Below are positions 1 through 56,722 of a DNA stretch of 64,000 bases, piece after piece; position 1 is the stretch's first letter, and each line of letters begins with the position of its first letter. The stretch comes from Betaproteobacteria bacterium (lineage in GTDB: Bacteria; Pseudomonadota; Gammaproteobacteria; Burkholderiales; SG8-41). Under the pieces are notes generated by a model. The model worked only from the letters and a program-made list of their open reading frames with translations, was not told the origin of the DNA and did not search any database. A program made the translations under genes and the position numbers. Location: positions 1,717-65,716 of the forward strand of contig JBKDUF010000046.1 in the NCBI GenBank assembly GCA_046339595.1. The letters run 5' to 3'.

Positions 1-472
1 CGGCGAACTGTTCAAGGCTGCCACCGGGCTCGATCTGCTGCATGTGCCGTTCAAGGGCGCCGGCCCCGCGCTGATCGAACTGGTCGGCGGCCGCAACGTG
101 CAGGTCATCTTCGACAACATGCCCTCGTCGATCGGCCATGTCCGCTCAGGTACTTTGCGCGCGCTTGCAGTGACCACCGCCAAGCGCAACGCCGCGCTGC
201 CCGACGTGCCGGCGATGGCCGAAACACTGCCCGGCTTCGAGGCCAGCGCCTGGTTCGGCATGGGTGTGCCGAAGGGCACGCCGGCGCCCATCGTCGCCCG
301 CCTGAACCGGGAGATGAATGCCGGCCTTGAAGACCCCAAGTTGCGTGCTCGCCTGGCCGAACTGGGCGGCGACCCGATCATCGGTACCCCGGCTGATTTC
401 TGGAAACTGCATGCGGCCGAGACCGAGAAGTGGGCCAAGGCGGTTAAGATTTCCGGCGCCAGGGTCGAATGA
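1..472 (+). CDS. Bug/TctC-family tripartite tricarboxylate transporter substrate-binding protein, C-terminal part (5' end outside window)
   Basis: Frame is open from base 2 (GELFKAATGLDLLHVPFKGAGPALIELVGG...). HVPFKG, LRALAVT and LPGFEASAWFGMGVPKGTP motifs are shared with the other nine TctC-like ORFs here. Stop TGA at 470-472. Confidence 0.9.
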   Translation, partial: GELFKAATGLDLLHVPFKGAGPALIELVGGRNVQVIFDNMPSSIGHVRSGTLRALAVTTAKRNAALPDVPAMAETLPGFEASAWFGMGVPKGTPAPIVARLNREMNAGLEDPKLRARLAELGGDPIIGTPADFWKLHAAETEKWAKAVKISGARVE

Positions 473-5486: not shown

Positions 5487-6998
5487 TCAACCTTCGGTCT
5501 CGAGCTGCACCTTGCGCCCGCGGAACCTGAGCTTTTGCAGTATCAGCGGCAGGCACAGGAACAGTAGGGTCAGCAGCAGGAATGCCGCCACGATCGGCCG
5601 CTCGAGCAGCACCAGCAGGTTGCCCTGGGACATGATCATCGACTGGCGCAGCGCCTCTTCCATGCGCGTGCCCAGCACCAGCCCGAGGATCACCGGCGCG
5701 ACTGGATAAGCGTGCTTTCTCATGAAATAGCCCAGCACGCCGAAGCCGCAGAGGAAAATCAGGTCCAGGGTCTGCTGGTTGACGTTGTAGACGCCAACCA
5801 CGCAGATCACCATGATCACCGGCAGCATCAGGCGCAGCGGCACGTAGAGCAGGCGCACGAAAAGGCCGACCATCGGCAGGTTGAGGATCAGCAGCATCAC
5901 GTTGCCGACGTAGAGCGCGGCGATCAGTCCCCACACCACTTCCGGATGCTGGCTGAACATCATCGGCCCCGGATGCACATTGAGCGCCGTCAGCGCCAGC
6001 AGCAGGATCGCCGTGGTGCCCGACCCGGGAATGCCGAGGGTGAGCATCGGCACCATCGCGCCGGCACTGGCAGCGTTGTTGGCCGACTCCGGCGCGGCGA
6101 CGCCGCGGATCTCGCCCTTGCCGAAGCGCTCGGGGTTTTTGCTGATCTGCGATTCAACCGAATAGGACAGGAAAGACGCGATGCCGGCGCCGGCGCCGGG
6201 CATCACGCCGACGACGAAACCGATCGCGGTGCCGCGGCCGATCGCGCCCAAGCTTTCGCGGATTTCCTGGAAGGAGATGTACAGCCGGTGTTTGATCACC
6301 GACTTGGCCTCGCCGCTGCGCAGTTCATTGGTGTTGAGCAGCACCTCGGACACCGCGAAGAGGCCGATGGTGACGATCAGGAACTCGATGCCGTCGAGCA
6401 TTTCGGCAATGCCGAAGGTGAAGCGCGCGACGCCGGTGACATCGGTGCCCATGGTAGAGATCATCAGGCCGAGGGTCATCGCCATCAACCCCTTCACCAG
6501 CGAGCCGCCGGACAGTGCAGCGACCGACGACAGGCCGAACACCATCAGCACGAAATACTCCGGCGGACCGAAGTTCAGCGCCCATTCGGCGATACGCGGC
6601 GCGAAGAGCATCAGCGCTACCACACCAAGTGTGCCAGCAATAAAAGAACCGATGGCAGAGATACACAGCGCCGACCCCGCCCTGCCCTGCAGCGCCATCT
6701 GGTGACCGTCAAGGCAGGTCACCACGGAGGACGATTCGCCCGGCACGTTGAGCAGGATCGAGGTGGTCGAACCGCCGTACATCGCGCCGCAGTAAAGCGC
6801 GGCGAGCATGATGATGGCGCCCACCGGGTTCATGTTGAGCACGATCGGCAGCAGCATCGCCAGCGCGCCGGCGGGTCCGATGCCCGGCAATACGCCGATC
6901 ACCGTGCCGAGGACAGCACCGATGAGGGCAAACAGCAGGTTCTGGGGTTGCAGCGCGGTCTCGAATCCACCCATCAGCAGTGGCAGCACGTCGCCCAT
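5487..6998 (-). CDS. tctA: tripartite tricarboxylate transporter large permease TctA
   Basis: 503 aa polytopic membrane protein. GVLPGIGPAGALAMLLP and YGGSTTSILLNVPGE motifs. Lies directly downstream of tctB and tctC. Confidence 0.92.
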   Translation of the reverse strand: MGDVLPLLMGGFETALQPQNLLFALIGAVLGTVIGVLPGIGPAGALAMLLPIVLNMNPVGAIIMLAALYCGAMYGGSTTSILLNVPGESSSVVTCLDGHQMALQGRAGSALCISAIGSFIAGTLGVVALMLFAPRIAEWALNFGPPEYFVLMVFGLSSVAALSGGSLVKGLMAMTLGLMISTMGTDVTGVARFTFGIAEMLDGIEFLIVTIGLFAVSEVLLNTNELRSGEAKSVIKHRLYISFQEIRESLGAIGRGTAIGFVVGVMPGAGAGIASFLSYSVESQISKNPERFGKGEIRGVAAPESANNAASAGAMVPMLTLGIPGSGTTAILLLALTALNVHPGPMMFSQHPEVVWGLIAALYVGNVMLLILNLPMVGLFVRLLYVPLRLMLPVIMVICVVGVYNVNQQTLDLIFLCGFGVLGYFMRKHAYPVAPVILGLVLGTRMEEALRQSMIMSQGNLLVLLERPIVAAFLLLTLLFLCLPLILQKLRFRGRKVQLETEG

Positions 6999-7001
6999 GA
7001 T

Positions 7002-7478
7002 TCAGCCCTGGAAAAAGCGGGCCAGCGGCCCGAGAGGCAGCCGGATGTCCAGCAGATAATGAAACAGCCCGAACACCACCCCGGTCACGGCCGCACTGTA
7101 GCCGAGGATGCCCGTCCAGCTGGGATGCCCGAAGTAGCGGAAGGTGATCACCAGAAACAACGGTGTCGCAATCAGGAACCCGAGGTCCTCGAACACCAGG
7201 GCATAAGCCAGCAGCATGGCCGCCGGCACCAGCGCCGTGATGTCCGATCCTCCGTCATCCGCCTTGTCCTTCTTGCCGTCGGAGCCGCCCTGCAGCAGCA
7301 GCAGGATGCTCAGCAGGATGCCCAGCGCCGTCAGCAGCCGGTTGAAAAATGCCGGGCCGATCACATCCCCCTGCAGCGCGGCGGTGAGCTGGGTGCCGCC
7401 CCAGCCGTAGACCAGGACAACCCCGAGGAAAAGTAACGCACCGATGCGGCCGGCGCCGAGCGAAAATTTCATGCGCAT
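7002..7478 (-). CDS. tctB: tripartite tricarboxylate transporter small permease TctB
   Basis: Small 4-TM protein between tctC and tctA. I prefer ATG 7478 (TGGGAG SD 5 nt upstream) over the TTG at 7490 listed in the ORF track. Confidence 0.8.
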   Translation of the reverse strand: MRMKFSLGAGRIGALLFLGVVLVYGWGGTQLTAALQGDVIGPAFFNRLLTALGILLSILLLLQGGSDGKKDKADDGGSDITALVPAAMLLAYALVFEDLGFLIATPLFLVITFRYFGHPSWTGILGYSAAVTGVVFGLFHYLLDIRLPLGPLARFFQG

Positions 7479-7511
7479 GCGAACTCCCAATCTTCCATGT
7501 CCCGTCGCGTA

Positions 7512-11520: not shown

Positions 11521-12501
11521 TCACTGCTTGGCCGCAACCTCGGCCAGCACCTTGGCGTACAGCTTCTCTTCGCTGTCGATAAACGCAGCAAGCTCGGCGC
11601 CGACGATCCACTCCTCGACCAGTCCGTTCTGCCTGACGTAGTTTTTCCACTCCGGCGTCTGCCGGGCGCGTTCCATCGCGGCGACGTAAAAATTCACGGC
11701 CTCCTGCGAAATACCCGGCGGCGCCACCAGCCCGCGGAATTGCTTGAGCACGCGGAACTTGTAGCCTAGGGATGCGAAGGTCGGCAGACCGGGGTATTGC
11801 TCGGCGGGATGCAGGCTGGCGAGGGGGCGTATGCGGCCGGTCTTGACATGCTGGTCCGCCTCGGAGGGCTGCTCCAGCACGAAATGGACATGCCCGCCCA
11901 GCAGCGCAACCACGGCCTCGGCACTGGAACGAAAAGGCGTGTAGGAAAACTCCACGCCCCTTTCACGGGCGAGGTCGCGGCCGGCAATCGATGGCGGCGC
12001 GCCGAAACCGCCGCCGCCCTGAAGTATCGCCCGCGGCTTCTGGCGGGCGCTGGCAATCATGTCGTTCATGTTCTTCCACGGCAGCCCGGCGTGCACATAC
12101 AGCACCATCGGCTCGACCACTGCTATGGCGATCGGTGTGAAGCTCTTGACCGTGACGTCTGACTTGGCGTTGAGCGGCGCAACGATCAATTGCGGCGAGA
12201 ATCCGAACAGGACATTGGGATTGCCGCGGCTTTGCACCGCGACATGGCGCCGCGCGCGGTCGCCACCCGCACCGCTCATGTTCTCGACGGTGATCCTGGA
12301 CTGCACAATCCGGTTTTTTTCCCAGGCCGCCGCCACCTGCCGCAGGAACATGTCGACACCGGAGCCAGGCCCGGCATGGGTGACCATGGTTAGCCGGTCG
12401 CCGGGCGCCCATTCAGCGGCACGCGCCGGAAGCGCATGCAGCAGGGTCAGGGTAAGGGCCAATGCAAGGACCGGGCCAAGCAAATGCCTGAGCGGGCTCA
12501 T
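11521..12501 (-). CDS. second TctC-type substrate-binding protein of the operon
   Basis: 326 aa with signal peptide ...LHALPARAAEW. Same subfamily as 7512..8495 (MVTHAGPGSGVDMFLRQVAAAW versus MVTHSAPGTGNELMLREIADIM; FSYTPFRSSAEA). Confidence 0.88.
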   Translation of the reverse strand: MSPLRHLLGPVLALALTLTLLHALPARAAEWAPGDRLTMVTHAGPGSGVDMFLRQVAAAWEKNRIVQSRITVENMSGAGGDRARRHVAVQSRGNPNVLFGFSPQLIVAPLNAKSDVTVKSFTPIAIAVVEPMVLYVHAGLPWKNMNDMIASARQKPRAILQGGGGFGAPPSIAGRDLARERGVEFSYTPFRSSAEAVVALLGGHVHFVLEQPSEADQHVKTGRIRPLASLHPAEQYPGLPTFASLGYKFRVLKQFRGLVAPPGISQEAVNFYVAAMERARQTPEWKNYVRQNGLVEEWIVGAELAAFIDSEEKLYAKVLAEVAAKQ

Positions 12502-12600
12502 GTTTCCTCCTCGAAAACGGTGTGTACGGACCCATGCTTGGCGACCGCTGTTGTTTTCGAACTGTATTCATCGACCATGCATAGAACAAATGCTTTTTGT

Positions 12601-12658: not shown

Positions 12659-13582
12659 GTGGAACTCCGACATCTGCACTACTTCCTGAAAATCGCCGAA
12701 ACCGGGAGCTTCACTCAGGCAGCAGCGGCATTGCGGGTGACCCAGCCCACGCTGTCCCACCAGATCAGGCAACTGGAACAGGAAATCGGGTCGCCCCTGT
12801 TCGACCGCATGGGCCGCAGCATCCGCATCACCCAGACCGGCCGCGTCCTGCGTGACCATGCCGAGCGTGCGCTGCGCGAACTGGAATCAGGGCTGGCCTC
12901 GGTGACCGCCCTGGACGAAATGGCGCATGGCAGCCTGCGTATCGGGGTATTCCGCTCATTCGGCAATTCACCGCTGCCCGGCGTGCTTGCAGACTTCCAC
13001 AATGCCTATCCCGGCATTCACGCCTCGGTGCTGGAAATGTCGCTGTCTGACATGGAAGAGGGACTGATCAGCGGCAGCATCGACCTTGCCATCACCACCT
13101 ACCTGCCGGCCACTTCATCGAAGCTCACCTCCGAAACACTGTTCAAGGAACCCTTGGTGCTCGCTGTGGGAGCCCGGCACGAGTGGTATGGGCGCACGAG
13201 TATTCCACTCGAGAAGCTCGAGTCCGTGAAACTCGTGCTCCGGCCAGCGGGAGCACCTTCACGCAGGCTGATCGAGCAGTGCTTTGCCGCGCGCAAGCTC
13301 AAGCCCACGGTGGTCATGGAAATGAACAGCAGCGAGGCCGCGCTCGCCACCGTCAGGAGCAGCGGGCTGGCCACCATCTGCGCAAAACGCGCCCTCGCGG
13401 ATGCCACAGGACTCTCCGCAATACGGATTGAGGCGCCGGAATTGCGGCGCCATGGCGCGATCCTCTGGCACCGGCATCGCCATCGCCCCAGAGCCGCGGC
13501 AATCTTCGCGGACATGGCCAAGCAGGCTTACGCCATCAACCGGGCAGAGCATGCCGGTTGTGTGCGCGGCAAACCGCGCTGA
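12659..13582 (+). CDS. LysR-family transcriptional regulator
   Basis: GTG start gives the typical MELRHLHYFLKIAETGSFTQAAAALRVTQPTLSHQIRQLE wHTH N-terminus. 307 aa. Divergent from the tctC2-bicupin-tctCBA operon. Confidence 0.92.
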   Translation: MELRHLHYFLKIAETGSFTQAAAALRVTQPTLSHQIRQLEQEIGSPLFDRMGRSIRITQTGRVLRDHAERALRELESGLASVTALDEMAHGSLRIGVFRSFGNSPLPGVLADFHNAYPGIHASVLEMSLSDMEEGLISGSIDLAITTYLPATSSKLTSETLFKEPLVLAVGARHEWYGRTSIPLEKLESVKLVLRPAGAPSRRLIEQCFAARKLKPTVVMEMNSSEAALATVRSSGLATICAKRALADATGLSAIRIEAPELRRHGAILWHRHRHRPRAAAIFADMAKQAYAINRAEHAGCVRGKPR

Positions 13583-13626
13583 TGGATAATGGCTATCCCG
13601 TATGTGACCTGCCACTGATCAGCGCC

Positions 13627-14502
13627 ATGTCCGAGTGCCAACCCGCCATACTCCAGGCCGTGCCGCCCCTGGCACGCTTTGCCAGCTATACCCTGCACCC
13701 CGGTTCCAAACCGGCGGCCAGCCTGCGCGCGCTGGCCAGACTCGCGGACGGCGACCGCACCGTCGCGGGGCTCGGCCTCTCGCTGGTGTCAGCGCTGGGA
13801 TATCACATCGAAGGGCTGCGCCCATTCCCCGAATTCAGCGGCTTCGGCATCGACATGCCTTCCACGCCGGCAGCGCTGTGGCTGTGGCTGCGCGGCAAGG
13901 ACGCCGGCGAGCTGTTCCACCGCCAGCGCGAAATCAATGCGGCGATCGGCGAAGCCTTCCGTGCAAACCAGGTGATTGATGCATTCAAACACGGCAGCGG
14001 CCGCGACATCACTGGCTACGAGGACGGTACCGAGAATCCCAAGGGAAAAAAAGCCGTGCAAGCGGCAGTCTGCACCGATAGAGGCCTCGCCGGCTCCAGC
14101 TTTGTTGCCGTGCAGCAGTGGGAACACGACCTTGAACGCTTCAACGCGATGTCACCTGCCGGACGCGACCACTGCATCGGCCGCCGTCTGTCGGACAACG
14201 CAGAACTCGACGATGCGCCAGATTCGGCGCACGTCAAACGCACCGCACAGGAAAGTTTTGATCCGGAGGCCTTCGTGGTGCGACGCTCGATGCCGTGGAC
14301 CGAGGGCCAGCGCTGCGGTCTGGTGTTCACCGCCTTCGGCCGCTCCCTCGATGCCTTTGAGGCGCAGCTGCGGCGCATGCTCGGCGTCGAGGACGGCACC
14401 AGCGACGCGCTGTTCCAGTTCACCCGGCCGCTGAGCGGCGCCTATTTCTGGTGCCCGCCGGTGAAGGGCGGCAGGCTCGACCTGTCGGCGATCGAACTCT
14501 GA
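13627..14502 (+). CDS. Dyp-type peroxidase (YfeX/EfeB-like, cytoplasmic)
   Basis: GYEDGTENPKG (GxxDG motif), FVAVQQWEHDLERFN and a C-terminal ...FTRPLSGAYFWCPP. Start set at ATG 13627 (MSECQPAIL, like the YfeX N-terminus); ATG 13582 is also possible. Confidence 0.85.
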   Translation: MSECQPAILQAVPPLARFASYTLHPGSKPAASLRALARLADGDRTVAGLGLSLVSALGYHIEGLRPFPEFSGFGIDMPSTPAALWLWLRGKDAGELFHRQREINAAIGEAFRANQVIDAFKHGSGRDITGYEDGTENPKGKKAVQAAVCTDRGLAGSSFVAVQQWEHDLERFNAMSPAGRDHCIGRRLSDNAELDDAPDSAHVKRTAQESFDPEAFVVRRSMPWTEGQRCGLVFTAFGRSLDAFEAQLRRMLGVEDGTSDALFQFTRPLSGAYFWCPPVKGGRLDLSAIEL

Positions 14503-22703: not shown

Positions 22704-23681
22704 TCACTCGGTGACAATTTTCGCCGCCTTGACGATCTGGTTGTATTTCTCCAGTTCGGACTTGATCAGTTTGCCGAATTCCTCCGGCGTGCCGCCCGCG
22801 GGCTCCAGCCCCTGCTGTGCCAGCGCCTCGGTCATGCCGGGCAGGCCCAGCGTCTTCAGGATGTCCTGATTGAGCTTGCGCACGATCACCGGCGAGGTTT
22901 TTGCCGGCGCCAGCACGCCCTGCCAGTTCGACACATTGAAGCCCTTGACGCCGGACTCGGCGATGGTGGGCACGTCCGGCGCAGCGGCGGCGCGTCTGGC
23001 CGTGGTCACCGCGATCGCGCGCAGCTTGCCCGCCTTCACCTGCGGCAGTACCGGCGGCATGGTGCTGAAAATGAGCTGGACGCGGCCGCTGACCAGGTCA
23101 GCCATTGCCGGGCCGGTGCCCTTGTACGGCACATGCAGCAGGTCGGTGGCAGTGGCGTGCTTGAAGAGCTCACCCGCCATGTGCAGCGATGAACCGGTGC
23201 CGGCCGAGGCATAGGTCAGCTTGCCGGGGCTCGCTTTCGCCATCGAGACCAGGTCCTGCACCGTCTTCACCGGCAGCGAAGGATGCACCGCCAGCATGAA
23301 GGAGGACACTGCCACCAGCGCCGCCGGTGCGAAATCGCGCAGCGGCTGGTACGGCAGGTCCGCCTTCAGCGCCGGGGTCTGCGCGAGATTGCCGACGCTG
23401 CCGAGAAACAGGGTGTAGCCGTCAGGATTGGCCTGCGCGGCGATGGTGGCACCCAGCGCGCCGCCGGCGCCACCGCGGTTGTCCACCACCACCTGCTGCG
23501 CCACCACTTCCGACAGGCGCTGGCCGAGGGTGCGCGCGAGGATGTCGTTGCCGCCACCCGGCGGAAACGGCACCACCAGTCGCAGGGCCTTGTTGGGATA
23601 GCCGGCTGCAGCGCCTTGCGCAATGGCGGCCGGTGCAGCAAGCGCGGCCAGCACGGCGGCGCCAATCAGGGTGGGTTTCAA
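22704..23681 (-). CDS. Bug/TctC-family substrate-binding protein
   Basis: 325 aa. Signal peptide ...AAPAAIAQGAA. Motifs YPNKALRLVVPFPPGGGNDI, HVPYKGTGPAMADLVSG and KAGKLRAIAVT. Confidence 0.9.
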   Translation of the reverse strand: MKPTLIGAAVLAALAAPAAIAQGAAAGYPNKALRLVVPFPPGGGNDILARTLGQRLSEVVAQQVVVDNRGGAGGALGATIAAQANPDGYTLFLGSVGNLAQTPALKADLPYQPLRDFAPAALVAVSSFMLAVHPSLPVKTVQDLVSMAKASPGKLTYASAGTGSSLHMAGELFKHATATDLLHVPYKGTGPAMADLVSGRVQLIFSTMPPVLPQVKAGKLRAIAVTTARRAAAAPDVPTIAESGVKGFNVSNWQGVLAPAKTSPVIVRKLNQDILKTLGLPGMTEALAQQGLEPAGGTPEEFGKLIKSELEKYNQIVKAAKIVTE

Positions 23682-23804
23682 GCGGTTCTCCTCGTCGAAG
23701 CGGCGCTATGGGCGGCGCCGGGGCGGGCATTGTAGGTGCGCCGGCAAAGGGTGGGCAAGCCGGCCAAACACAGCCTGGCAGCGGGCGCGCAGAAACGGCG
23801 GCGG

Positions 23805-26014: not shown

Positions 26015-27000
26015 CAGTCAGCCTTGACGCCGGAAGCGGCGAGCACCTTCGCCCACTTCACCGACTCGGAGCGGATGTAGGCGGCGAACTGCTCCGGTGT
26101 ATTGCCGATGGTGGTCGCGCCCTGCGCCGCGAGCTGCTTCTCGACATCCGGGTGACGCACTGCGCGTGCGATGTCGCCATGCAGCCGCGCGATGACCTCG
26201 CGCGGCGTCGCCGCCGGCGCCATCAGGCCGAACCAGGTACCCGCTTCGAAACCCCGAAAACCGGATTCCACCATGGTCGGGATCTCCTTCGCCACGTTCT
26301 GCCGCTGCAGGCTAGTCACCGCCAGCGCGCGCTGGCGGCAGGCCCTGACCTGCTCGATCACCGACAGCATGTTGCCGAAAAACACCTGCACGTTGCCGCC
26401 AAGCAGATCGGTGGTCGCCGGCGCGCTGCCTTTGTACGCCACATGCATCATGTCGATCCTTGCCTGCTGCTTGAAGAACTCAGCAGCAAGGTGCGGCAGT
26501 GTGCCATTGCCAGTGGAAGCATAGTTGATTGCCCCGGGCTTGGCCTTCGCCAGGGCCACCAGGTCCTTCACTGACTTCACGGGCATCGAGGGATGCACCA
26601 CCCGCACGCTGGGCACGCTGGCGACCAGCGACACCGGCGCGAAATCGCGCTCCACTGAATACGGCAGCTTCGCCTGCATATGCGGAATCACGGTGAGGAT
26701 GCCGGCCGTGGCCATGAACAGGCTGTAACCATCGGGCGGGGCTTTCGCTGCAAGTTCAGCGCCGACGATGCCGCCGGCACCGGCACGGTTGTCGACGATG
26801 ACCTGCTGGCCCAGCGCCTCGGCGAACCGCCCCACCACCGCCCGCGTCACAATGTCCACGCCGGCGCCCGGGGGAAACGGCACCACGACGCGCACCGGTT
26901 TCGAGGGATAAGTCTGGCACCAAGCCGGAATTGCGGGGGCGGCGAGCAGTACGCAGGCGATTAGGCGGGAAAGCATGTGCATGTGCATGTGCATGGGCAT
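26014..27000 (-). CDS. Bug/TctC-family substrate-binding protein
   Basis: TYPSKPVRVVVPFPPGAGVDI and HVAYKGSAPATTDLLGG. The start is uncertain: five in-frame ATGs (MPMHMHMHML) lie at 26976-27000. The stop overlaps the PrpD-like start (TGATG). Confidence 0.88.
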   Translation of the reverse strand: MPMHMHMHMLSRLIACVLLAAPAIPAWCQTYPSKPVRVVVPFPPGAGVDIVTRAVVGRFAEALGQQVIVDNRAGAGGIVGAELAAKAPPDGYSLFMATAGILTVIPHMQAKLPYSVERDFAPVSLVASVPSVRVVHPSMPVKSVKDLVALAKAKPGAINYASTGNGTLPHLAAEFFKQQARIDMMHVAYKGSAPATTDLLGGNVQVFFGNMLSVIEQVRACRQRALAVTSLQRQNVAKEIPTMVESGFRGFEAGTWFGLMAPAATPREVIARLHGDIARAVRHPDVEKQLAAQGATTIGNTPEQFAAYIRSESVKWAKVLAASGVKAD

Positions 27001-27099
27001 GGGCGTGGTCCTGGATTGAAATGCCGCGAAAAACACTCGCACAAAAACCACAACAACAGCGAAATGAAGCGCAGTTCCGGACGGCAGACTCGCGGCGGT

Positions 27100-33454: not shown

Positions 33455-34074
33455 AGCTCTACTGGTCGTCGCGATCGCCCTTCGTGCGCAAGGTGATGGT
33501 GTTCGCCCATGAATGCGGCCTCGCATCGCAGCTGAAGCTCGAGCGCACCCCGGTGGCGATGAACAATCCCAACCGCGGACTGCTCAAAACCAATCCCACT
33601 GGCAAGATCCCGACGCTGGAGCTTGATGATGGCAGCGTGTTGTACGACTCGACGGTGATCTGCGAATACCTCGACAGCGTTCAGCAGGGGCCGCGGCTGT
33701 TTCCGGCCGCGGGCCAGGCGCGCTGGACTGCGCTGCGCCGCCATGCCCTGGGCAACAACCTCACCGACAACCTGATGCTGTGGCGCAATGAACTGTTGCG
33801 CCCTGCCGCGCAGCAGTCGCCGGAAATACTCGCCGCCTTCGAGCTGAAAGTGCGCAATGCCCTCGACGTGCTCGAATCGGAAGCCGGGGCGCTGGCACGG
33901 GACGCACGTACCCAGTTGACGATTGGCCCTATCGCCATTGCGGTGGCGCTGAGTTATATCGATTTCCGTTTTGCCGCGCTCGGCTGGCGCGAAGGCCATG
34001 ACCAGCTCGCAAACTGGTATGCGGAATACTCGCAACGGCCGGCCATGCGCGAAACCGCTTTTGTCGATCAATAA
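33451..34074 (+). CDS. glutathione S-transferase
   Basis: GTG 33451 (VKLYWSSRSPFVRKV...). KIPTLELDDGSVLYDSTVICEYL is a GST N-terminal thioredoxin-fold motif. 207 aa. Confidence 0.82.
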   Translation: MKLYWSSRSPFVRKVMVFAHECGLASQLKLERTPVAMNNPNRGLLKTNPTGKIPTLELDDGSVLYDSTVICEYLDSVQQGPRLFPAAGQARWTALRRHALGNNLTDNLMLWRNELLRPAAQQSPEILAAFELKVRNALDVLESEAGALARDARTQLTIGPIAIAVALSYIDFRFAALGWREGHDQLANWYAEYSQRPAMRETAFVDQ

Positions 34075-34132
34075 ACCGGTCAGCAATACAGAATTAACCA
34101 AAACAAGCAGTACTGAGACTGAGGAGAACGCC

Positions 34133-35101
34133 TTGCATTGCAGAATCCTGCTTCCGCTGCTGCCCCTGCTGCTCGCCGCGCCTGCCGTGACCGCCTGGGC
34201 CCAGGCCTATCCCGTCAAACCGGTTCGCATCGTGGTACCCTTCCCGCCCGGCGGTCCGACCGACATCGTGACCCGGCTGATGGCGCCGAAAATGGCCGAA
34301 GCGATGGGCCAGCAGGTGATCGTGGACAACCGCGGCGGCGCCGGCGGCGCCATCGGTACCGAGCAGGTCGCCCGTTCCGCGCCCGACGGCTACACACTGG
34401 TGATGGGCACCATCGGCGGCCTTGCCGTGGCGAAAAGCCTCAACCCCAAAATCGGCTATGACACCCTGCGCGACCTCTCCCCCATCAGCCAGAGCGTGAC
34501 CGTGACCAGCGTTCTGGTCACCCACCCCTCAGTGCCGGCAAAAACCGTCAAAGACCTGCTCGCGCTGGCGAAGAACCGCAAGCACAAGCTCAATTACGCC
34601 TCCTCCGGCAACGGCACCATCACCCACCTCGCCGGCGAACTGTTCAAGCTCATGGGCAAGGTGGACATCACCCACGTCGCCTACAAGGGAGGCGCACCGG
34701 CGATGGTCGCGCTGATTTCGGGGGAAGTCGACCTGAGCTACGAGAACAGCCTGATCATCACGCCACACATCAAGTCGGGCAAGGTCAAGGCCATTGCCGT
34801 CACCGGTGCGAAACGGTCGCCGCTGCTGCCGGAACTGCCGACCATCGGCGAAACCCTGACCGGCTACAGCGCCAACGGCTGGTACGGCCTGCTCGCGCCC
34901 GCGGGTACGCCGCGGCCGATCATCACCCGACTGCACGCCGAGGCTGTAAAGGCGCTGCGCGCGCCGGATGTGGCCGACAAACTGGCCGGACAGGGCGCCG
35001 AGCCGGTGGCCAGCTCGCCGGAGGAATTCACCGCCTTCATCCGCAGCGAAACCGAAAAATGGGCGAACCTGGTGAAGGCCGCCAACATGCGCACGGATTG
35101 A
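34133..35101 (+). CDS. Bug/TctC-family substrate-binding protein
   Basis: TTG 34133 lies 5 nt after GAGGAGAA. Signal peptide ...AAPAVTAWAQA. Motifs YPVKPVRIVVPFPPGGPTDI and HVAYKGGAPAMVALISG. Confidence 0.88.
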   Translation: MHCRILLPLLPLLLAAPAVTAWAQAYPVKPVRIVVPFPPGGPTDIVTRLMAPKMAEAMGQQVIVDNRGGAGGAIGTEQVARSAPDGYTLVMGTIGGLAVAKSLNPKIGYDTLRDLSPISQSVTVTSVLVTHPSVPAKTVKDLLALAKNRKHKLNYASSGNGTITHLAGELFKLMGKVDITHVAYKGGAPAMVALISGEVDLSYENSLIITPHIKSGKVKAIAVTGAKRSPLLPELPTIGETLTGYSANGWYGLLAPAGTPRPIITRLHAEAVKALRAPDVADKLAGQGAEPVASSPEEFTAFIRSETEKWANLVKAANMRTD

Positions 35102-53194: not shown

Positions 53195-53728
53195 CTACTG
53201 ATGGCCTTTCAACAACAGGTCCACCACCTGGGGCGCGATCTCCGCCGCGCGCTGGTCCATCTGTTCCGGCGTCAGGTTGGCGATCGGGTGCGGCATGACC
53301 AGGAACTTCAGGTCCGGCACGCCCCAGGTCTTCGCCATCGCCTTGCCCGTCACCGTGAACACGTGGGTGACGATGGACGCCGAAGGAATCCCCTGCTGCT
53401 CAAATACGATGCTGTCGAGCACACTGCCCGAGCTGCATGACCCTCAATCGCCGACGCCTGCAACGATGATGTCGCAGTTCTGCTTGTACTCGGCAATCAT
53501 CTCCGGGCCGGGGGCCGAACCGGCGCTTTTCTTTTTGCGGATCACATGCGACTTCGCACCGTGTTCCTTCTCGAGGATCGCTGCGATGCGCATCAGCAGC
53601 TGGTCGGAGTTGTGCTTGGTGTTGTCGACCAGACCGATGCGCAGGCCCTGGAGCGACTTCGGCCGCGGCACGAAGTTGATCTTGCGACTGCTGGTTTCGG
53701 TGGTGGGATCGTAGATCTGGATGCTCAT
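53195..53728 (-). CDS. UGSC-motif selenoprotein (in-frame UGA at 53444..53446 read as Sec), function unknown
   Basis: ORFs 53444..53728 and 53195..53422 share one frame and are separated only by TGA plus 7 sense codons. Product: ...IIVAGVGD-U-GSCSSGSVLDSIVFEQQ... SD TAGGAGA precedes ATG 53728. The downstream part has no ATG or SD of its own. Confidence 0.75.
53409..53438 (-). promoter_or_regulatory. candidate bacterial SECIS hairpin for the UGSC gene
   Basis: mRNA +6..+35 after the UGA. Lower stem AUGC/GCAU, 3x2 internal loop, upper stem UCGGGC/GCUCGA (one G-U pair), apical loop AGUGU. Folded by hand only. Confidence 0.45.
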
Positions 53729-53782: not shown

Positions 53783-54820
53783 TCAAGGACACCGGATTTC
53801 CCGGGTAACACTCTGCGAACCGTTCTTGCCGCCCCAGCCGGGGATGTAACAGGACTGCACGCCGGCCTTGCCGCCGGCGGCGATGACCAGCAAATCCTGC
53901 GGCGTGTGCACCAGCGGCTGCATCGTGGCTTCGGATTCGGCGGTGACCGGGCCGGGGCGTATGTTGGCGCGCTGCATCTCGGCCTGCGACAACTGGCTGT
54001 GCTCGAACACATAACGCTGCACATCCTCGCGCGACCAGCCCGCCTTCTGCATGATCAGCTGGTGCTCGCCGGCGAACACCATCGCGTACTGCGGCTGGCG
54101 GTTGGTGCCGGCCGAGAAGCGCATCTGCGCACAGGCCGTGGTCAGCACGCCTTCGGGCGTCGCACTGAGGCCGTTCGAATACTGATGCACGCCAAGGGCT
54201 GCGAAAATCGTCACCGCGTTATGCTCCGGCTTGAAGCCGCGCGTGGTGTGGAAAGGCGGCCACGGGCTGTCCACCTCGTTCTCGGCGATGCAGAAGGTGT
54301 ATTTGCCGGGGTGGCCGAGGCTGGAGCGGTCGAGCACCCCGGGCGTGGTGCCGATCACGTTCTGCATCACGAGGCGGATGGCGCGGCCGATGGTGGCATT
54401 GGCGCGCCAGCCCTGGCCGAACACGTTATCGCCGCTGTTGATGTTGAGCTGTTTCGCGATCGGGCCGTTGACCAGCATGAACACCGCCGAGCCGCCGGTG
54501 CTGGTTGCCGGGCCGTGGTAGCCGTAGAGCGGATCGGCCAGCGCCTCGACGGTGGCGGTGATCACGGGCATGAACTCCGGCTTGCAGCCAGCCATCACCG
54601 CGTTGATCGCGACCTTCTCGGCGGTCACCGAGACCTGGCGGTTTTCGATGAACGAAAGTTGTTTACCCGGTTCGAGGCCGCCGGCTTCAAGCATCGCGGC
54701 GATCCGCGACGCGGTCGGCGGAATCACCGGCAGGCCGTCGGTCCAGCCATTCGCATAGCAGAGCTCGATGGCGCTGCCTTCGTCGTCGGCCGTCAGCCGG
54801 CGGGACTTCAGTTCGATCAT
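53783..54820 (-). CDS. uncharacterised 345-aa protein immediately upstream of the UGSC selenoprotein gene
   Basis: ORF trimmed to ATG 54820 (SD GGAGGAG). MIELKSRRLTADDEGSAIELCYANGWTDGLPVIPPT... I recognise no named domain. Soluble-looking. Only 54 bp separate it from the UGSC gene. Confidence 0.75.
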   Translation of the reverse strand: MIELKSRRLTADDEGSAIELCYANGWTDGLPVIPPTASRIAAMLEAGGLEPGKQLSFIENRQVSVTAEKVAINAVMAGCKPEFMPVITATVEALADPLYGYHGPATSTGGSAVFMLVNGPIAKQLNINSGDNVFGQGWRANATIGRAIRLVMQNVIGTTPGVLDRSSLGHPGKYTFCIAENEVDSPWPPFHTTRGFKPEHNAVTIFAALGVHQYSNGLSATPEGVLTTACAQMRFSAGTNRQPQYAMVFAGEHQLIMQKAGWSREDVQRYVFEHSQLSQAEMQRANIRPGPVTAESEATMQPLVHTPQDLLVIAAGGKAGVQSCYIPGWGGKNGSQSVTREIRCP

Positions 54821-54963
54821 GCCGCTCCTCCGCTGCGCTTGCTCCGGACGGGCAAGTCTGCAGATCAGTCTACCGCAGTTCACCGGGAACGCCTGGCGCC
54901 GCATCCACATCATGGGCCGGGGACTCTGCTAAGGTGGCAACCTCGTCACCATCCATGCCTGCC

Positions 54964-56130: not shown

Positions 56131-56161
56131 AAAAAGGCCGGCGGTGGCAGCCGCCGGCCTT
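56131..56161 (-). terminator. rho-independent terminator after the selenoperoxiredoxin gene
   Basis: Minus-strand AAGGCCGGCGG-CTGCCA-CCGCCGGCCTT followed by TTTTC. Confidence 0.75.
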
Positions 56162-56180: not shown

Positions 56181-56642
56181 TCAGAGCTTGCGGATTTCCG
56201 CCAGCAGCTCATCACTGGCAGGGATCGTGCCCTGCGGGTAGACCTTGGCGTAGCGGATGACGCCCCCCGCATCGATGACGTAGGCGGCGCGCTTGTCGAT
56301 ACCGCGTTCCTCGTTGAAGATGCCAAAGGCCCTGCCCACCGCGCCATGCGGCCAGAAATCCGACAGCAGCGGGAACGGCACCCCGCCGAGGACATCGGCC
56401 CAGCCCTTCAGGCTCGGCGTCGGGTCTATGCTCAACTGCAGGATCTCGGTGTTGAGCGCCTTGAATTTGTCGTAGTTCTCACGGAACCCACGGACTTGAT
56501 TGGTTCACCCGCCGGTAAATGCAAAAGGCATGAACGCGACCACGACCGGCCGGCCGCGGAACGCGGACAGCGTGACCTTCTGGTCGGAATTGTGCGCGGC
56601 CAGCGAAAAATCGGGCGCGGCGCTGCCAGCTTGAATTTCCAT
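56181..56642 (-). CDS. AhpE-like 1-Cys-type peroxiredoxin with selenocysteine at the peroxidatic position (UGA 56505..56507)
   Basis: ATG 56642 (SD GGGAGAA) gives MEIQAGSAAPDFSL...VVVAFMPFAFTGG-U-TNQVRGFRENYDKFKALNTEILQLSIDPTPSLKGW...FPLLSDFWPHGAVGRAFGIFNE... The UGA falls exactly in the PxxxTxxC signature. The two track ORFs (the tail of 56505..57320, and 56181..56435) are in one frame. Confidence 0.8.
56469..56495 (-). promoter_or_regulatory. candidate bacterial SECIS hairpin for the peroxiredoxin gene
   Basis: mRNA +10..+36 after the UGA: GU(C)CGU(G)GGUUC-CGUGA-GAACUACGAC. Ten pairs with two single-nucleotide bulges and a 5-nt loop. Folded by hand only. Confidence 0.5.
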
Positions 56643-56722
56643 GCAAGTTCTCCCGGGATTGAGTGGGTGCTGCGGACTGCCTGCGCAGAATACCGGCACG
56701 GCGGCGCCGAGGCAACGCGGAT

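Follow-up and report, generated by a model that had tools for sequence, protein, structure and literature searches.

The window, as the whole analysed stretch of 64,000 nucleotides is called here, carries on its minus strand a reading frame (56181..56642) that is interrupted by a single in-frame TGA. The question raised by this locus is whether that TGA marks a broken gene or a codon that is translated. The sequence-only reading had proposed a peroxiredoxin in which selenocysteine (Sec), encoded by UGA, takes the place of the peroxidatic cysteine. This proposal was supported by the alternation of TGA and Cys codons among homologues, by selection on both sides of the TGA, by a synonymous freeze and by a neighbouring UGSC-family gene. 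The gene can be regarded with high confidence as an intact AhpE-type peroxiredoxin of 153 residues with UGA-encoded Sec as its peroxidatic residue. The features of the locus are listed below.

56181..56642, minus strand: predicted selenoperoxiredoxin coding sequence, complete, 153 sense codons including the UGA-encoded Sec46 (based on translation, PF00578, AhpE structures and dN/dS)
56642..56640, minus strand: start codon ATG (direct sequence reading)
56648..56654, minus strand: Shine-Dalgarno sequence GGGAGAA, 5 nt upstream of the ATG (direct sequence reading)
56505..56507, minus strand: in-frame UGA, predicted Sec 46, at the peroxidatic position of P39xxxT43xxU46 and aligned to AhpE Cys45
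56183..56181, minus strand: stop codon TGA, end of the 153-codon frame
56131..56161, minus strand: rho-independent terminator, AAGGCCGGCGG, loop CUGCCA, CCGCCGGCCUU, then a U run (sequence and terminator scan)

The frame reads MEIQAGSAAPDFSLAAHNSDQKVTLSAFRGRPVVVAFMPFAFTGG-(TGA)-TNQVRGFRENYDKF...AEIRKL-(TGA), and its read-through product of 153 residues contains the motif P39-F-A-F-T43-G-G-U46. The in-frame TGA (56507..56505) is preceded by 45 sense codons (MEIQ...PFAFTGG), and 23 sense codons separate it from TTG 56435, the start of the listed 84-aa ORF. The earlier description of two ORF pieces in one frame, split by the TGA and 23 sense codons, was correct in all its coordinates. The Shine-Dalgarno sequence named for ATG 56642 was present at 56654..56648, and the clean terminator reported after the gene could be recovered in the sequence and by a terminator scan as a GC-rich stem (56161..56134) followed by TTTTT, 3' of the terminal TGA. 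As the gene has its own Shine-Dalgarno sequence and its own terminator, it is probably monocistronic. The gene neighbourhood of the peroxiredoxin differed between orthologues and gave no hint to the reductant.

For protein searches, the internal stop was replaced by a Cys placeholder. The read-through product matched the Pfam AhpC/TSA profile PF00578 with 111.9 bits against a cut-off of 26 (E 2.4e-32), with product residues 6-131 aligned on profile positions 2-123 of 124, and it also matched Pfam Redoxin. The best PDB matches were seven M. tuberculosis AhpE entries (E 1.7e-33 to 1.1e-32), and the next PDB family was the 2-Cys Prx at E 4.2e-19. BLASTP analysis revealed 43% identity to M. tuberculosis AhpE over 136 residues. 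On the strength of this identity to solved AhpE structures, the AhpE fold was taken as settled. The assignment to the AhpE-type 1-Cys peroxiredoxins, already made in the sequence-only reading, was borne out.

The alignment placed P39, T43 and the UGA position 46 on AhpE Pro38, Thr42 and Cys45. The U column of the PxxxTxxC signature therefore falls on the peroxidatic cysteine, as the sequence-only reading had claimed. Furthermore, R118 (DKRAAY) aligned with the catalytic Arg116 of AhpE (ANRGTF) and was invariant in 13 orthologues (column 119). The 153-residue product contains zero Cys codons and no resolving cysteine, in line with the 1-Cys character of the AhpE subfamily; without recoding, the product would have no redox-active residue. 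The profiles of other Sec-containing peroxidases were not matched at their cut-offs. The PrxU profile (NCBIfam NF040737) gave 87.1 bits against 270, and the Prx-SUH thiol peroxidase selenoprotein profile (NF045827) gave 31 bits against 298. The Prx-SUH motif is CxxU, whereas the window protein has TxxU and no Cys.

The codon at the peroxidatic position was compared across 160 homologous loci with a locatable active-site motif, which were collected from one-genome-per-species scans and JGI metagenomes. These loci were spread over Burkholderiales/Betaproteobacteria, Anaerolineae, Dehalococcoidia, Acidobacteria, Binatia and Eisenbacteria. The codon was TGA in 67, TGC in 75 and TGT in 18 of them. 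An alignment with AhpE/Prx homologues had been suggested as a check for Cys at the U column, and Cys could indeed be found there in 93 of the 160 related loci as well as in AhpE (Cys45). Among the motif classes of the 160 loci, TGA was present in 23/23 loci of the xTGG type and in 43/51 of the xTP[VIT] type, mostly Anaerolineae, and a Cys codon was present in 52/52 loci of the actinobacterial AhpE type. In the xFTGG class, which is the clade of the window and includes additions fetched via truncated database proteins, every one of 52 loci carried TGA. The xFTGG loci originated from Betaproteobacteria/Burkholderiales MAGs, Dehalococcoidia, Binatia, Eisenbacteria and metagenome contigs. The recurrence of TGA at the same column, in 67/160 loci and in all xFTGG loci, is more than chance.

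The only Cys-form (TGC) orthologue found in the beta-type clade was L190 / L191, 3001..3459 (protein P0007). This protein has acquired another cysteine, five residues further on (GG-C-TNQV-C-GF), possibly a resolving Cys that came with the Sec/Cys switch. Several 'full-length' database proteins (P0001, P0002, P0004, P0005, P0006 and P0008) show Trp at the Sec position (FTGGW), and some of the FTGGW entries are named 'mycoredoxin-dependent peroxiredoxin'. Because the sampled clade loci all have TGA at this column, the Trp most likely arose in gene calling, and these entries would be mistranslated selenoproteins in which TGA was read as Trp (code 4 or 25). A further protein, P0003, has Leu at the U position. 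In three metagenomic proteins (P0012, P0101 and P0105), an N-half of the actinobacterial AhpE type in its Cys form is followed by a C-half near-identical to the beta-type clade; they have the appearance of assembly chimeras whose junction is the conserved LSDFWPHG block.

The RNA downstream of the UGA was analysed for a SECIS-like element, and two features could be placed there.

56471..56489, minus strand: SECIS-like conserved core, putative, GGGUUC-CGUGA-GAACUACG, nt 19-37 from the U of the UGA
56469..56495, minus strand: 10-pair bulged hairpin of the sequence-only reading, nt 13-39 after the U of the UGA, with two bulges

Nine consecutive codons (window codons 51-59, nt 16-42, 56492..56466) were without any synonymous variant, in an alignment in which 18 of 143 informative columns were free of such variants, and no run as long was produced in 200,000 shuffles. 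Among 25 orthologous sequences (21 distinct), nt 19-37 (GGGUUCCGUGMGAACYACG) varied only at nt 29 and nt 34, and a fixed CGU arginine codon lies within this segment. The core forms a 5-bp stem, nt 20-24 with nt 30-34, that closes the pentaloop CGUGA (56483..56479). Its five pairs, which are the upper pairs of the 10-pair hairpin, and the CGUGM loop were kept in 21/21 distinct sequences. As for the lower pairs, four were unpaired in 16-18 of the 21 distinct sequences and the fifth (14-38) in 3/21. The 10-pair hairpin had a folding energy of -7.0 kcal/mol in the window sequence and +5.7 in the majority orthologue sequence, and the conserved core alone had -3.5 kcal/mol, so that the hairpin is weak in either version. 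The hairpin noticed earlier thus exists in the window and its upper five pairs are conserved, but its lower pairs are lineage-specific.

By the bSECISearch criteria, a hairpin just downstream of the UGA should have a small apical loop that contains G and lies about 16-37 nt from the codon. A SECIS model search, which had been suggested for this region, was uninformative because no curated model covers such bacterial SECIS elements: Rfam gave no match for the whole window at gathering thresholds or for 56300..56700 at E up to 10. The 66-nt fold was not more stable than its shuffles (z = +0.66), a test without power for so short an element.

Two folds compete for the conserved core. The stem around the CGUGM loop can be extended by G19-C36 and Y18-G37 with A35 bulged, with 98.6% paired cells. 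The alternative, CGUG[MGAAC]UACG with GGGUUC/GAAUUC at its base, cannot form together with it and reached 95.2% paired cells. Since the element is invariant in the clade of the window, covariation is absent there, and pair counts cannot choose between the two. We lean towards the CGUGM-loop fold, since this loop recurs in a Dehalococcoidia-type Sec clade on a 7-bp stem of another sequence, CUUCAAC[CGUGM]GUUGAAG, and the UGSC gene of the window forms a C[AGUGU]G hairpin.

The Cys-form orthologue L190 (P0007, TGC) reads GGAUUCCGCGAUAAC in the frozen block, with GGG changed to GGA and CGU to CGC at synonymous positions that are frozen in the Sec forms. This drift in the TGC orthologue indicates that the constraint is tied to the UGA. 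Over the wider set, the 57 nt after the codon folded at -17.3 kcal/mol in the 67 Sec forms and at -13.4 kcal/mol in the 93 Cys forms (p = 5e-5), and the greater downstream stability of the Sec forms was found despite their lower G+C content. The Chloroflexi-type Sec sister clade has a longer hairpin with compensatory changes in 8/12 pairs of a hand-specified structure. The score of that hairpin was reached by 0/500 shuffles, with slid controls far lower. No consensus structure was obtained from 42 Chloroflexi-type sequences with RNAalifold.

Whether the host decodes Sec was approached from the window itself. None of selA, selB, selD and fdhA could be found among the about 50 ORFs of the 64-kb window, and ARAGORN detected no tRNA and no tRNA-Sec in it. 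A second UGA-interrupted gene was nevertheless present about 2.5 kb from the peroxiredoxin gene.

53195..53728, minus strand: second predicted selenoprotein gene, UGSC family, a 177-codon frame with TGA at 53446..53444 (PF24696)

Its read-through product (...IIVAGVGD-U-GSCSS...) matched Pfam PF24696 end to end with E 4.5e-59, and gene callers split the gene into 94- and 75-aa pieces. In L167, a locus near-identical to the window, two adjacent gene calls both matched Pfam 'UGSC'. The UGSC gene has a hairpin at 53437..53410, CUCGGGC[AGUGU]GCUCGA, closed by C-G, with -10.7 to -11.1 kcal/mol. Counted from the U of the UGA, its pentaloop AGUGU contains G23 and U24, as does the apical loop of E. coli fdhF. 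UGSC-containing proteins are well recognised as a selenoprotein family (PMC2398784, PMC9312934). As two UGA-interrupted genes, independent of each other and both from known selenoprotein families, lie less than 3 kb apart, it is very likely that the organism decodes Sec. A scan of the window for more genes with in-frame TGA yielded the UGSC gene only; the other same-frame pairs were adjacent ordinary genes.

The UGSC gene is immediately preceded, on its own strand, by a 376-aa ORF (53783..54913, minus strand), and L167 shows this arrangement too. This ORF had no Pfam or NCBIfam match. The GOS paper mentions fusions of UGSC proteins with a domain named 'Unknown_1' of uncharacterised function (PMC2398784), and the ORF at 53783..54913 could be this 'Unknown_1' partner.

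An interrupted frame can also be explained by decay or by error. A pseudogene, that is, a former Cys-peroxiredoxin decaying after a TGC-to-TGA nonsense mutation, would need one transversion only, and the two fragments given by gene callers (45 and 84/91 aa) would suit it. However, 13 full-length orthologues, which at 60-85% protein identity are not copies of one assembly sequence, contained no further stop and no frameshift. The median dN/dS was 0.19 on the 5' side of the TGA and 0.15 on its 3' side, revealing purifying selection on both halves, and the TGA is kept throughout the clade despite a mean synonymous difference (pS) of about 0.53-0.56 among orthologues. The start, Shine-Dalgarno sequence and terminator are intact, and the zone without synonymous change follows directly after the TGA. 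Relatives with the same TGA and clearly degraded flanks, which the sequence-only reading had named as the sign of a true pseudogene, were thus not what these 13 orthologues represent. Two halves under selection at such divergence argue that the locus is not a pseudogene, and we consider decay highly improbable. A sequencing or assembly error at 56505..56507, with TGC or TGT as the true codon, was the other doubt raised beforehand. Single-base errors do occur in assemblies, but 9 independent assemblies, each built from other sequencing runs, were identical to the window over the 66 nt from the TGA onward, and TGA was present in all clade orthologues, which come from unrelated samples. Nine identical independent assemblies leave virtually no room for such an error.

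The remaining alternatives accept the sequence as functional and differ in how it is translated. The UGA might be read as an amino acid other than Sec, either as Trp or Gly by reassignment or as Cys via a UCA-anticodon tRNA or near-cognate suppression. The database entries with W at this position and the lack of visible Sec machinery within the window point in that direction, but the W entries sit at the column that is TGA in all clade loci and are best accounted for by code 4/25 calling. TGA is the usual stop in the window, where it ends 37/52 ORFs, the peroxiredoxin gene among them; hence there is no reassignment of the genetic code. Moreover, an enzyme with Trp or Gly as its peroxidatic residue would be inactive, which does not fit the purifying selection on the gene. 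The RNA constraint is linked to the TGA and missing in the TGC orthologue, as a SECIS predicts, and the nearby UGSC-family gene has UGA at its defining U. Decoding as a residue other than Sec is therefore unlikely. Public records, with entries such as a 91-aa 'redoxin domain-containing protein', would be matched by two small genes that are translated separately, one for a peptide of 45 residues and one for a redoxin-domain protein of 84-107 residues. Neither fragment, however, is a complete thioredoxin fold, and the downstream piece would be devoid of the PxxxTxxC motif altogether and has no cysteine. TTG 56435 has no conserved start context, the starts chosen by callers vary (84, 91 or 104 aa), and the pieces always lie in one frame at a fixed spacing. 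A pair of genes is accordingly given very little weight against a single gene with UGA-encoded Sec.

For this single selenoperoxiredoxin gene, the following mechanism can be proposed. When the ribosome arrives at the UGA of codon 46, the hairpin 17-31 nt downstream would be bound by SelB-GTP-Sec-tRNA(Sec). The binding hairpin would be the 5-bp stem with its pentaloop CGUGA, extended by lineage-specific lower pairs, and SelB would deliver Sec in place of termination by release factor 2. The second UGA, at the true end of the gene, has no such element and would act as a stop. In the mature protein, Sec46 would be located in the canonical P39xxxT43xxU46 active site together with R118, and its selenolate would reduce a hydroperoxide and become a selenenic acid. 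As the protein has no other redox residue, neither a cysteine nor any resolving residue, the selenenic acid is proposed to be recycled by an external thiol system. Binding by SelB, the exact fold of the SECIS, the incorporation of Sec, the substrate and the reductant are all inferred in this scheme.

The gene is poorly served by present annotation. Its fragmentation by ORF callers had been anticipated, and public records show the 45-aa piece together with 84-104-aa 'redoxin' pieces. Sec-peroxiredoxins had been called known but rare; they are known, but hundreds of truncated fragments of this gene in protein databases speak against rarity, and homologous sequences are abundant in public data, either as fragments or with W at the Sec position. 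No NCBIfam model covers the AhpE-type Sec subfamily, and annotation pipelines will therefore go on breaking the gene. The main value of the finding lies in the correction of annotation and in a natural Sec/Cys pair for enzymology, as the window gene and the TGC orthologue L190 would allow a comparison of selenol and thiol peroxidases in a minimal enzyme of the peroxiredoxin type that relies on one redox residue. This gene and the UGSC gene also point to a selenoproteome beyond formate dehydrogenase in a Burkholderiales-like organism. The present understanding of Sec decoding and of peroxiredoxins is unchanged by the finding. A wider proposition, possible but less likely than not, is that AhpE-type selenoperoxiredoxins form a large, mostly unannotated clade of soil and freshwater Burkholderiales, with Sec as the sole redox residue and a short invariant SECIS with an NGUGN loop. 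The NGUGN loop, common to the neighbouring UGSC gene, may be the recognition motif of the SelB of this lineage.

The surroundings of the gene were also surveyed. The 64 kb contain at least five genes of the TctC ('Bug'-type tripartite tricarboxylate receptor) family (2..469, 11524..12567, 22707..23705, 26017..27099 and 33953..35098), and TctA and TctB are encoded at 5490..7511. Neighbouring TctC genes were likewise seen at the peroxiredoxin orthologues in L161, L162, L178, L182 and L190, and this pattern is consistent with a Burkholderiales genome. Another peroxide-handling enzyme of the window is represented by a Dyp-type peroxidase domain gene (13432..14499, plus strand; PF20628, E 1.7e-36).

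Among characterised proteins, the closest relative by sequence is M. tuberculosis AhpE (Rv2238c; PDB 1xxu, 1xvw, 4x0x), a 1-Cys peroxiredoxin of the same subfamily, whose structures were the best PDB matches by 14 orders of magnitude. Both proteins are about 153 residues long and have in common the P-x3-T-x2-(C/U) motif, the active-site Arg (R116 in AhpE, R118 here), the LSDFWPHG block and the absence of a resolving cysteine. In contrast to AhpE, the window protein would carry UGA-encoded Sec where AhpE has Cys45 and is free of cysteine, and its host is a Burkholderiales-like betaproteobacterium. M. tuberculosis AhpE is reduced by mycoredoxin-1/mycothiol. Burkholderiales-like betaproteobacteria are not known to make mycothiol or mycoredoxin, so the reductant of the window protein would have to differ from that of AhpE.

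The putative RNA element can be compared with the SECIS of E. coli fdhF, which has G23/U24 in its apical loop. Both are hairpins within the coding sequence just downstream of the UGA, and the G-U dinucleotide in the small apical loop of fdhF has its counterpart at nt 26-27 of the window element. Compared with fdhF, the conserved stem of the window element is much shorter (5 bp), its loop is CGUGM and it had no Rfam match.

Sec-containing peroxiredoxins have been recorded repeatedly: 12 genes in 2006 (PMC1794560), 253 in the GOS data (PMC2398784) and 91 in 78 organisms in 2016 (PMC5029168). The 2006 survey gave FdhA as the only selenoprotein of Betaproteobacteria (PMC1794560), and our literature search found no explicit description of an AhpE-type Sec branch or of Burkholderiales Sec-peroxiredoxins. 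PrxU of Eubacterium acidaminophilum is the Sec-peroxiredoxin that was characterised by experiment (Sohling et al. 2001, cited in PMC13188914). Like the window gene, PrxU (NF040737) has Sec at the peroxidatic position by UGA recoding, but it belongs to another subfamily with a profile of 233 positions and the NCBIfam name 'thioredoxin-dependent peroxiredoxin'. The selenoprotein family Prx of the Zhang/Gladyshev catalogues (PF00578, TxxU), a Sec family listed in PMC13188914, provides the closest frame, as the window gene combines the AhpC/TSA domain with predicted Sec at TxxU. Judged by its sequence, the window gene is a member of this established TxxU Sec-peroxiredoxin family, placed within the AhpE subfamily.
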